Assembly: GCA_024672275.1 (NCBI GenBank)
Contig: GCA_024672275.1_4536.1
Source: a phage
Strand: one strand, 5' to 3'
DNA: 64,000 nt
Shown: positions 20,147-34,031 of the stretch, piece after piece
Layout of the letters: every line of letters starts with the position of its first letter
Position numbering within the stretch: the stretch's first letter is position 1
The notes under the pieces: model-generated
Databases searched by the model: none
What the model saw: only the letters and a program-made list of their open reading frames with translations
Told to the model about the DNA's origin: nothing
Translations under genes and position numbers: made by a program

Positions 20147-20169
20147 AAAAAAGGGAGCAATAAGCTCCC
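20147..20169 (-). terminator. rho-independent terminator (gggagc-ttatt-gctccc + U6)
   Basis: Minus-strand hairpin followed by ttttttatt. Confidence 0.65.
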
Positions 20170-20175
20170 TGATTA

Positions 20176-21135
20176 TTAGATTCCAATAATAGTTGCTGCT
20201 CGTTTATCTTTGGATCTGGTGTTTGCTCTACTACGTGACAAACCTCCACAAGATTCACAACGAATGATATCGAAAGAACTTACCGCAGTGTGGTATTGCT
20301 TACCAGTAACAACGTGAACATGATCACTGCCGCAACGAGAACAACGGACTTTCTCATCTGGGTAATAAGCGGATAAGTTAGGATGCTGTGGAATCCACGG
20401 AAGGATTTTCATATACAAATCACGGAGTGAAACAACATCGCCATCATTGTAAATCTGCATACGTTCAAAAGCATCACGATCACCTTCACAACATGCTTTC
20501 CATAAAGGGAACCCCTCGTTATCCAGTTTTTCACTTTCTGTTTCAAAATACGCTCCCATTTCTTTAAGAGAATTGGAAGGAAGTGCAAACTGTTTCTTAG
20601 CTGCCTTCAAGGTATCAACAACTACATAGTTAGAAGGTGGAGCCATATCATGATATGCGAAGCGTTGGTTAATGTATGCACGGTCAAACTTATACCCGTT
20701 GTGTGCCACAACTACATCTGCCTCGTTCAGAAGGTTCCAAAGATCTTGGCAAAGCTCCCAATCATCCGTATGATCAATATCAAAAAGAGGATAAGAAGAC
20801 AAGTTCTTACCTTCCACTTCGCCAGTATACAGGTCAGCAGAAGAGTAGGATAACAAATAACCTCTGCGAATCACCTGGTCTGGAGAAATGAAGGCTTTGA
20901 ATCGACGGAAAGTATATGCAATCTCTGGTGCAGTTTCAACATCAATAATTTTAATAACTGGTTGTTTCTTTTTAACTGGCTCTTGTTTACTTGCTCCAAA
21001 TCGTGCAAGGAAATCGTTCACTGTGCTTTTTCTTGTTGGACTACCTAAAACAATTGCTGCAATATTACGAGAAGACATACCCTCTGCACTCATACTAAGG
21101 ATATCTGCTTTCTGCTCTTCTGTTAATCTGCTCAC
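20176..21135 (-). CDS. DEDD-type 3'-5' exonuclease with N-terminal HTH and C-terminal zinc ribbon
   Basis: IIDVETAPE (Exo I), VVAHNGYKFD (Exo II), CSRCGS...CESCGG. Confidence 0.5.
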   Translation of the reverse strand: MSRLTEEQKADILSMSAEGMSSRNIAAIVLGSPTRKSTVNDFLARFGASKQEPVKKKQPVIKIIDVETAPEIAYTFRRFKAFISPDQVIRRGYLLSYSSADLYTGEVEGKNLSSYPLFDIDHTDDWELCQDLWNLLNEADVVVAHNGYKFDRAYINQRFAYHDMAPPSNYVVVDTLKAAKKQFALPSNSLKEMGAYFETESEKLDNEGFPLWKACCEGDRDAFERMQIYNDGDVVSLRDLYMKILPWIPQHPNLSAYYPDEKVRCSRCGSDHVHVVTGKQYHTAVSSFDIIRCESCGGLSRSRANTRSKDKRAATIIGI

Positions 21136-21821
21136 TCTGCCTCCTGTTGTGAGATGTATGACTGAAGCATACTCTCAAATGTTGTATCGTCATTATCCCA
21201 GCGTTTCATGTATACCAACTGGAAAATTGTTTCTATCCATTCATCTGTTGTCATATGGACTTCTTCTCCATCCCAAGAAGTAAAATTAACACCATCTGGG
21301 AACCACGAGTAGTAAGTATCTTTAACTGTTTGGAAAAGTTCTGCTTGAGTTTTACAAGCTGAAAGAAGATTAAAACAAGTAATATCTCCGAACTTAATAT
21401 CAAAATCTTGATAAGGTCGGATACTATCTGTTTTATCTCCCATTAGCATCTGATATGCTAACCAGTAACTGCCCCAACCTTTAACTTCTTTCTTTTTACC
21501 TTTATCTACAATCCATATATCGCCAATAGACTCGTCAATAAGAATTATATCTGGATTTTTAAATACTCCATCCTCTTTGTAGAAATTAAAAAGGATACTA
21601 GGAGTATGTAAACTATCTTTATCTATAGACACTACGATATAAGAAAATTTACCCGTCCTTTTATAATCTTTATAACCTTGGAAACCATACTTCTCTAACT
21701 CATCGTCAGCCTCTATTACAGTAACAACATCACCATTGTGGAACTCCACAAGATAATCTTTGGTTTCTGAAAGCTGAAGTGGTTTGATATCTAATCGTTC
21801 AGATTTATATTCTACAGGCAT
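21132..21821 (-). CDS. FEN/RNase H-like 5'-3' nuclease, C-terminal portion (upstream 441 nt in frame without canonical start)
   Basis: YIVVSID, ILIDESIGD, LMGDKTDSI blocks resemble T4 RNase H; frame stays open upstream to 22262 and encodes ETIAAIDYDQIA resembling the T4 RNase H N-terminus. Confidence 0.45.
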   Translation of the reverse strand: MPVEYKSERLDIKPLQLSETKDYLVEFHNGDVVTVIEADDELEKYGFQGYKDYKRTGKFSYIVVSIDKDSLHTPSILFNFYKEDGVFKNPDIILIDESIGDIWIVDKGKKKEVKGWGSYWLAYQMLMGDKTDSIRPYQDFDIKFGDITCFNLLSACKTQAELFQTVKDTYYSWFPDGVNFTSWDGEEVHMTTDEWIETIFQLVYMKRWDNDDTTFESMLQSYISQQEAE

Positions 21822-22262
21822 TTTGAAGGCGTGTCTGAAAGTTTTTCCTACGCCAATAACTCCGCAATATTTTTCTAAACGTAGATGTTTTAGAATACCT
21901 AAGACTTTTGTTTTAGCTGCTTGGAAGGTGTGTCCGATATCTTCTGGCGGGTATTGCTTATCAATGATTTCGAACTCTTCCTTTGTGAAGGGACGTTTGT
22001 TTTTGGAGGCTCTTTCTGCATTTGTATCTCCTAGCCAACCTCCAATTTTAGTCTTGCTTTTACCCCAAAACTCTGTCTTATTTTTAAATTCCTTTTGAGC
22101 ACCTGAAGGGATGTGCTTCGCAATGATTGTTCTTTTCTCTAACGCAGACGCTGCTTGGAAAGCGATCTGATCATAATCAATTGCAGCTATTGTTTCTTCG
22201 TTGACATATAAATGAAGATCTTCAGGTTTAATTAAAATATAACCGCTAATATTTCCCCCTAA

Positions 22263-22472
22263 TTATTCATCGTCATCCTCTGTTGAGAATGTTTTAGTAT
22301 ACGGACATTGACGACTTTTCGGGATTGCTATAACTTCATCTTGGTTAGCGTTAGAATAGTAGCAATATTTTGTATTGCCATTAACTTCAGAATCAGACAA
22401 GATTAAAGTAATTTGACCTGCTGCTACTGTGAAACTAAAAGCTAAAAGAACGACTGTCAGAATCTTTTTCAT
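22263..22472 (-). CDS. small secreted protein (signal peptide)
   Basis: MKKILTVVLLAFSFTVAAGQ hydrophobic N-terminus, GGAGG RBS. Confidence 0.5.
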   Translation of the reverse strand: MKKILTVVLLAFSFTVAAGQITLILSDSEVNGNTKYCYYSNANQDEVIAIPKSRQCPYTKTFSTEDDDE

Positions 22473-22482
22473 AACGCCTCCT

Positions 22483-22511
22483 AAAAAGCCTACCTCATTA
22501 AGTAGGTAGGC
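22483..22511 (-). terminator. rho-independent terminator (minus strand)
   Basis: 8-bp stem gcctacct/aggtaggc followed by ttttt. Confidence 0.6.
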
Positions 22512-22544
22512 ATAATATCATAACTAATCCCGCAAGTCAAGAAC

Positions 22545-33956: not shown

Positions 33957-34031
33957 GGCCCTGTAGCTCAATGGGAGAGCTGTCGGCTCATAACCGATAG
34001 GTAGCTGGATCGAAACCAGCCAGGGCCACCA
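33957..34031 (+). tRNA. tRNA with CAU anticodon (Met or lysidine-Ile), CCA encoded
   Basis: Hand-folded: 7-bp acceptor ggccctg/cagggcc, anticodon loop ctCATaa, T-loop atcgaaa. Confidence 0.7.

Follow-up and report, generated by a model that had tools for sequence, protein, structure and literature searches.

The nuclease locus and its open frame

We analysed a window of 64,000 nucleotides (nt), the full length of a stretch of phage DNA from GenBank assembly GCA_024672275.1 (contig GCA_024672275.1_4536.1), and focused on a gene on its minus strand for a nuclease of the flap endonuclease (FEN) family. This region shares 99+% identity with 65 GenBank records of the genus Phapecoctavirus (phAPEC8-like myoviruses, subfamily Stephanstirmvirinae). 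The gene is the middle one of an apparent three-gene unit made up of a small open reading frame (ORF), the FEN and a 3'-5' exonuclease (Table 1), and it is usually annotated as an ORF of 229 amino acids (aa). As an original prediction made from the sequence alone had noted, the frame of this ORF stays open for another 441 nt (147 codons) upstream, as far as 22262, and begins directly after the TAA (22265..22263) that ends the preceding 69-aa ORF. The same prediction correctly saw that ATG, GTG and TTG are absent from these 147 codons, the earliest in frame being codon 148 at 21821, and that a GGGGGA Shine-Dalgarno (SD) motif stands before in-frame AAT ATT codons, the sequence after the TAA reading TTA GGG GGA AAT ATT AGC GGT TAT. 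Taking the frequency of in-frame ATG, GTG and TTG from the 34 long ORFs of the window (4.9% of codons), a run of 146 codons lacking all three has a probability of ~7e-4. When all open frames of 120 codons or more in the window are compared (71 in total), the nuclease frame is an extreme outlier, with 147 codons before a canonical start vs. 57 for the next. The runner-up late-start frame, 43366..44343 (-), was dropped, its translation reading like non-coding antisense.

Table 1 Features of the nuclease locus and its surroundings in the window.
Feature	Position	Strand	Remarks
Corrected CDS, FEN-family 5'-3' exonuclease / flap endonuclease, 372 aa	21132..22250	-	Probable ATT start; TGA stop 21134..21132
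Inferred initiation codon ATT (AUU)	22248..22250	-	Outgroup start alignment; ATT/ATC/ATA/CTG there in 25 lineages
SD motif GGGGGA	22254..22259	-	GGAGG in most relatives; GGGGG core 4 nt from ATT
N-terminal 142 codons absent from most public annotations	21822..22247	-	Strand 1 with D25, family-specific insertion, GVIGVGKTFRH with R139
Usual annotated ORF, 229 aa from internal Met144	21132..21821	-	ATG at 21821; 4 residues before Y148-K149
EADD metal-binding block, E180-A-D182-D183	21702..21713	-	Sequence, invariance, alignment with EADD of Taq polymerase
D210-K211-D212 (DKD motif of FENs)	21615..21623	-	Invariant; aligns with ADKD of Taq polymerase
G271-D272-K-T-D275 (GDxxD, helix-three-turn-helix region)	21426..21440	-	Aligns with GDESDN of Taq polymerase
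Upstream 69-aa ORF, signal-peptide-like N-terminus	22263..22472	-	TAA stop 12 nt before ATT
Downstream RNase_H_2-family (PF13482) gene	20176..21135	-	Annotated as 3'-5' exonuclease or DNA polymerase exonuclease subunit
Promoter-like site TTGACT-17-TATTAT with TG	22540..22512	-	Consensus scan only; upstream of small ORF
Terminator-like hairpin	22511..22488	-	Consensus scan; ASO2A has a terminator annotated at the same place
Terminator-like hairpin after downstream gene	20170..20152	-	Scan

The upstream part of the frame is largely missing from public records. Those of phAPEC8, ASO2A and iGC_PHA_EC001 (RefSeq/GenBank) list the 229-aa ORF alone, with a gap of 441 nt before it. Among 60 records listed, one annotates the N-terminal region as exonuclease, and the other 59 have no feature there, small 'hypothetical' ORFs, or no annotation at all. 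The phAPEC8 RefSeq record places a 40-aa 'hypothetical protein', gp266, at 21899..22021 (-), out of frame and inside the unannotated N-terminal part of the nuclease; this and similar small ORFs of several other records are almost certainly spurious. By exact-sequence look-up, the 372-aa protein read from the ATT at 22250..22248 (with Met for ATT) is already public as 'putative exonuclease' of phage ESCO13 (AQM50955.1 / YP_009786567.1; UniRef100 cluster n=12), the record of which (KX552041.2) independently annotates the CDS from exactly the same ATT. This precedent, identical in product and start, is one of annotation only: the genome announcement of ESCO13 neither mentions nor justifies the ATT start (PMC5374246), and our literature search on the phAPEC8/ESCO13 start codon and on AUU/ATT starts in phages returned no description of this ATT start or of the clade-wide pattern, and no proteomic or ribosome-profiling data on the N-terminus. 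What was known already is the ATT start in one database record; that weak start codons are retained throughout the clade, as described below, is unreported in the papers covered by the search. In the sister genus Justusliebigvirus, a homologue (L004, Escherichia phage ESCO32, 613..1731) is annotated from a GTG at codon 33 as a 344-aa protein, which cuts off the catalytic Asp of its IDYDQ motif; 84 nt before that GTG stands a GGAGGT-AAT-ATT start context as in the window. Relatives differ widely in where their first canonical codon falls, from codon 9 to codon 147, which accounts for the ragged N-termini of automatic gene calls in the clade. Overall, in ~60 Phapecoctavirus genomes, and in those of Justusliebigvirus that were examined, the record is truncated (to 229 aa, or to 344 aa from the spurious GTG) and lacks the first catalytic Asp, and gene callers limited to ATG, GTG and TTG will keep repeating this truncation.

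Coding extent, fold and active site

Several lines of evidence show that the upstream part of the frame is protein-coding. A tblastn search with the full open frame retrieved exonucleases of 360-380 aa from Certrevirus (CR3, phiTE), Vequintavirus (rV5-like), Nankokuvirus, ICP1, PAK_P-like phages and others, with many matches covering the query from about residues 1-30 onward. The invariant columns in an alignment of 51 family sequences comprise the carboxylates D25 (22178..22176), E180, D182, D183, D210, D212, D272 and D275, together with R139, Y148, K149 and K211; of these, D25 and R139 lie upstream of Met144, the first residue of the annotated ORF. Pairwise Nei-Gojobori comparisons with 16 relatives gave a pN of 0.16-0.34 vs. 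a pS of 0.62-0.90 for the N-terminal 143 codons, and a pN of 0.08-0.34 for the C-terminal 229 codons. Judged by these substitution patterns, the N-terminal 143 codons are under purifying selection of the same kind as the C-terminal 229. AlphaFold2 returned a single compact model for the 372-aa sequence (mean pLDDT 96.3, pTM 0.90), in which structured elements begin at residue 5 (residues 5-25 are structured).

The 372-aa protein has the PIN-like alpha/beta fold of FEN nucleases. When the model was compared with known nucleases, the figures obtained were 16.9 for a plastid 5'-3' exonuclease, 15.1 for the Mycobacterium smegmatis flap endonuclease, 14.8 for E. coli ExoIX, 14.4 for the T5 5'-exonuclease and 13.6 for T4 RNase H, followed in the same list by FEN1, EXO1 and XPG; Foldseek agrees. 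At the sequence level, PHROG 107 'exonuclease' matches the window protein at 1e-55. A Pfam search with the window nuclease gave no match, leaving it below the curated thresholds of the family profiles (PF02739 + PF01367). Sub-threshold PF02739 matches are present in 15 of 51 relatives, distant members scoring 24-27 bits vs. a cut-off of 34.3, and in distant relatives these matches start at residues 80-107, inside the region that is omitted by annotation. A profile search of PDB sequences aligned the conserved blocks to Taq polymerase (E 0.27). The possibility, raised at the outset, that the FEN fold is complete within 21132..21821 does not hold, because in the Taq alignment and the PF02739 matches Met144 comes midway through the N-terminal nuclease domain, just before the invariant YK motif. 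Met144 is not among the invariant or nearly invariant columns, and there is no SD before its ATG. Together, alignments and model indicate that the gene encodes a complete, divergent FEN-family nuclease of 372 residues.

Most of the canonical active-site carboxylates are in place, and one is replaced. The EADD, DKD and GDxxD blocks all align with motifs of Taq polymerase. The EADD block, which the original prediction took to be displaced or absent, is present inside the annotated ORF (region VIEADDELEKYG), and the carboxylate that has been replaced is a different one, the equivalent of Taq D67. This position is occupied by G133 (21852..21854, -), a nearly invariant Gly that is invariant within the close clade, in the motif GVIGVGKTFRH vs. 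VVFDAKAPSFRH of Taq polymerase; the nearly invariant D27 might compensate for the missing carboxylate. In the GDxxD block, G271 is likewise nearly invariant overall and invariant within the close clade. Besides GDxxD, the arch/clamp residues of the T5 Y82-K83...R86 type are recognisable as Y148 and K149, followed by the nearly invariant R152, and align with the Taq motifs. By analogy with T4 RNase H and T5 D15, the enzyme would remove primers and flaps during replication and recombination. It differs from both in being ~100 residues longer, with a ~60-residue insertion after strand 1 and a C-terminal extension, in the Gly at the Taq D67 equivalent, and in a sequence too divergent for Pfam detection; T4 rnh and T5 D15, moreover, start with ATG.

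Position of the initiation codon

To locate the start, we collected start regions from GenBank, IMG/VR, metagenomes and Logan/ENA contigs and defined a clade of sequences that share the 'IDYDQ' N-terminus and have 50-100% protein identity to the window (29 distinct proteins, 25 distinct start contexts). All 25 contexts have GGAGG or GGGGG, then 3-4 nt, and then a near-cognate codon at the aligned position, which is ATT in 13 lineages, ATC in seven, ATA in four and CTG in one. The spacer triplet that separates the SD from this codon is free to vary (AAT, ACT, ATT, GTT, AAC, AGG, TAA, AAG, AGT, TTT, TTA...). In four lineages (L014, L025, L026 and L028) the spacer is an in-frame TAA directly before ATC, so that the frame cannot begin any earlier, and the next canonical start lies 35 to 142 codons downstream. 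An automatic start-finder took an earlier ATA in L030 and L038; by alignment the homologous codons are ATA and ATT, respectively, and the conclusion is unchanged.

Outgroups with canonical starts point to the same position. In CR3-like phages, ATG-GGT-TAT (MGYPVVEN) aligns with ATC-GGC-TAC (IGYILIEP) of the clade, and in rV5-like phages a TTG start, 3-4 nt after GGAGG, falls within ~2 residues of the aligned position. The start of phiTE is likely a GTG at or within ~2 residues of that position, as judged from the alignment; its record (L008, 577/604) is annotated from an ATG 9 codons upstream and has GGAGGAGTTA-GTG at the aligned position. Avoidance of ATG extends to more distant homologues, as in the rV5-like phages, where the TTG follows AGGAGG by 3-4 nt (L006, phage CarlMeissner, 610). 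The catalytic Asp follows the start by about the same number of residues, 22-25, in most of the lineages compared, and by 29 in rV5-like phages. No canonical start can yield the conserved N-terminus, while the near-cognate codon lies at a proper distance from the SD and its position is conserved in the homologues. Guided by the in-frame stops next to this codon, its distance from the SD and the canonical outgroup starts that align with it, we place the start, with good confidence, at ATT 22250..22248, giving a CDS of 21132..22250. The original prediction had offered a rare AUU start, a sequencing error or a decaying gene as explanations for the missing start; comparative evidence strongly favours the first, and the other two fail, as detailed below.

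A variant of near-cognate initiation, compatible with it and possible although on balance we doubt it, is that termination-reinitiation dominates, with ribosomes that leave the 69-aa ORF restarting at the AUU and free 30S subunits contributing little. Most relatives examined have an ORF of 64-73 aa called immediately before the nuclease, typically ending within ~20 nt of the nuclease start, and an upstream stop is found within this distance in the lineages examined even where the upstream gene encodes a methyltransferase. In addition, reinitiation after the upstream gene accounts for about half of the signal at an infC-type junction of E. coli, about equal to de novo initiation (PMC3592434). 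However, a strong SD at fixed spacing is kept in every lineage, which argues that SD-directed positioning matters, and closely packed genes are the rule in these compact genomes, those of relatives with ATG starts included. With the TAA of the 69-aa ORF only 12 nt before the ATT, translation of the nuclease may be coupled to that of the small ORF.

Initiation at a downstream non-canonical codon, such as the ATT at 22238..22236 or 22232..22230, would shorten the protein by 4-6 residues and is improbable. While the Ile codons at 22238 and 22232 are also kept as ATT, ATC or ATA in many relatives, their distances from the SD core, 16 and 22 nt, are too long, and the canonical outgroup starts align with 22250 and not with either of them. 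Residues 2-8 are moreover conserved, and the AlphaFold2 model is structured almost from its N-terminus.

It is very improbable that the true product is the 229-aa protein starting at Met144 and that the 441 nt before it are what is left, untranslated, of a decaying gene, even though gene callers and about 59 of the 60 GenBank records listed report the 229-aa form. In the upstream region pN is far below pS, the invariant D25 and R139 lie there, and the high-confidence model (pLDDT 96) spans all 372 residues; Met144, for its part, is unconserved, lacks an SD and sits in the middle of a PF02739-type domain. The frame is also open in every one of >30 diverged relatives. We give even less weight to production of the N-terminal part by readthrough or frameshifting from the 69-aa ORF, resulting in a fusion protein. 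In the window the upstream ORF is in the same frame with only the TAA in between, and one automatic gene call shows the fusion. In Justusliebigvirus, however, the upstream ORF uses a different frame and two in-frame TGA codons separate it from the nuclease, which excludes readthrough. Two in-frame stops are present in L025, L026 and L028, and it is implausible that a DNA nuclease would carry a signal peptide. The fused call itself (P0005, 444 aa, 48 members; L054, Logan contig SRR30397360_28145, 401..1735) is a gene-calling artefact, since the contig has a TAG between the ORFs. Finally, a sequencing or assembly error that removed a canonical start, for which the missing start itself is the only support, has a negligible probability given that at least 54 of the 65 independently sequenced Phapecoctavirus genomes match a 64-nt query spanning the stop, SD and ATT at 100% identity, that metagenomic contigs carry the identical start-region sequence, and that the same architecture with different near-cognate codons recurs in 25 lineages.

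Retention of a weak start codon

The initiator tRNA can initiate at near-cognate codons but pairs imperfectly with AUU, and IF3 discriminates against near-cognates. In the proposed mechanism, initiation would occur at the near-cognate AUU, with the strong SD 4 nt upstream and the stop of the small ORF 12 nt upstream, and the protein would begin with Met (MSGYILIKPEDL...) despite the AUU codon. In E. coli, AUA, AUC, AUU and CUG have been grouped as the four 'near-cognates', which initiate well below AUG, GUG and UUG, at ~1-2% of AUG and at 0.02-3% in other constructs (Hecht et al., 10.1101/063800). This set is exactly that of the four codons found at the nuclease start site. In a model of the infC junction (UAA GGU AUU), AUU was ~4-fold below AUG (Osterman et al., PMC3592434).

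This raises the question of why a weak start would be kept. On a neighbour-joining tree, the four near-cognate codons replaced one another at least 8 times, and no change to ATG occurred within the clade. A single transition would turn ATA into ATG, yet ATG was not seen at the site in the 25 lineages. Because the clade keeps four near-cognate codons and ATG is never seen, we infer that the weak start is probably maintained by selection. Its most plausible benefit would be to keep down the amount of a nuclease that may be harmful, in line with the proposal for pcnB; as a possible further layer, synthesis could also hinge on how stringent IF3 is and on translational coupling with the upstream ORF. 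Several points weigh against initiation at a selected near-cognate codon. Interchange of ATT, ATC and ATA is also expected from synonymous drift of an ordinary Ile codon, and a gap of 3-4 nt after the GGAGG core is among the shortest that are usual, although the TTG of rV5-like phages is spaced in the same way. The ~25 lineages behind the absence of ATG are related to one another and not independent, and a nested lineage, L039, has a canonical TTG at the aligned position. The case for initiation at ATT is, moreover, a comparative one.

Two E. coli genes offer precedents. At the thrS-infC junction, infC (encoding IF3) likewise has a near-cognate AUU with an SD, a few nt after the upstream stop. 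The junctions read UAA GGU AUU in infC, UAA UUA GGG GGA AAU AUU in the window and GGAGGAG UAA AUC in relatives; in the window the stop, SD and AUU all lie within 15 nt, the same type of arrangement as in infC. In both cases the non-canonical start is conserved among relatives, and for infC the yield is several-fold below that of AUG (PMC3592434). The difference is that infC is autoregulated, with its product IF3 discriminating against AUU, whereas any IF3 dependence of the nuclease would be a passive sensing of the host and not feedback. The closest functional analogy is pcnB, in which an inefficient AUU start is likewise found on a nucleic-acid enzyme. Its product, poly(A) polymerase I, is harmful in excess. 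According to the title of Binns & Masters 2002, cited in PMC3592434, the inefficient AUU start limits translation of pcnB. Here the differences are that pcnB is a host gene for another enzyme family, and that the toxicity of the phage nuclease is assumed.

According to Hecht et al. (10.1101/063800), the only non-canonical starts that had been confirmed in E. coli were those of infC and pcnB, both AUU. By comparative sequence evidence, the nuclease gene is a candidate natural near-cognate start in coliphages and would be a new example of a known phenomenon. What sets it apart from infC and pcnB is that 25 diverged lineages interchange exactly AUU, AUC, AUA and CUG, with AUG unseen. Selection for weak or conditional initiation is directly testable in a tractable phage-host pair.

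A more far-reaching idea, which we consider unlikely, is that the near-cognate start does more than set the amount of nuclease and serves as a regulatory device, with nuclease synthesis gated by host start-codon proofreading (IF3 per ribosome), which changes during infection, and maybe modulated by an initiator-like tRNA-Met of the phage (35801..35879). If true, a whole phage subfamily would use AUU, AUC, AUA and CUG to time a replication/recombination nuclease. The tRNA cluster of the window has 10 genes, including two for tRNA-Met(CAT) at 35801..35879 (+) and 33957..34031 (+). The former has an A1.C72 acceptor-stem mismatch, making it initiator-like, and is without the three G:C anticodon-stem pairs (GGG:CCC) of bacterial initiators; such a tRNA could have a bearing on near-cognate initiation. 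The latter, with G1:C72, resembles an elongator or Ile2-type tRNA.

Folding of the RNA around the start gave no structure beyond chance (z -0.48), and for this reason we do not propose a riboswitch-like or occluding hairpin. As for the surrounding genes, the three-gene unit is bounded by the promoter- and terminator-like region 22540..22488 on one side and by the terminator-like hairpin after the downstream gene on the other. The product of the 69-aa ORF has two Cys and an acidic C-terminus (..TFSTEDDDE), and its stop codon overlaps or abuts the nuclease SD. Pfam PF13482 was found on the homologous downstream neighbours in relatives. The GTG start of the downstream gene overlaps the nuclease stop (GTGA, 21132..21135), which suggests translational coupling along the unit.

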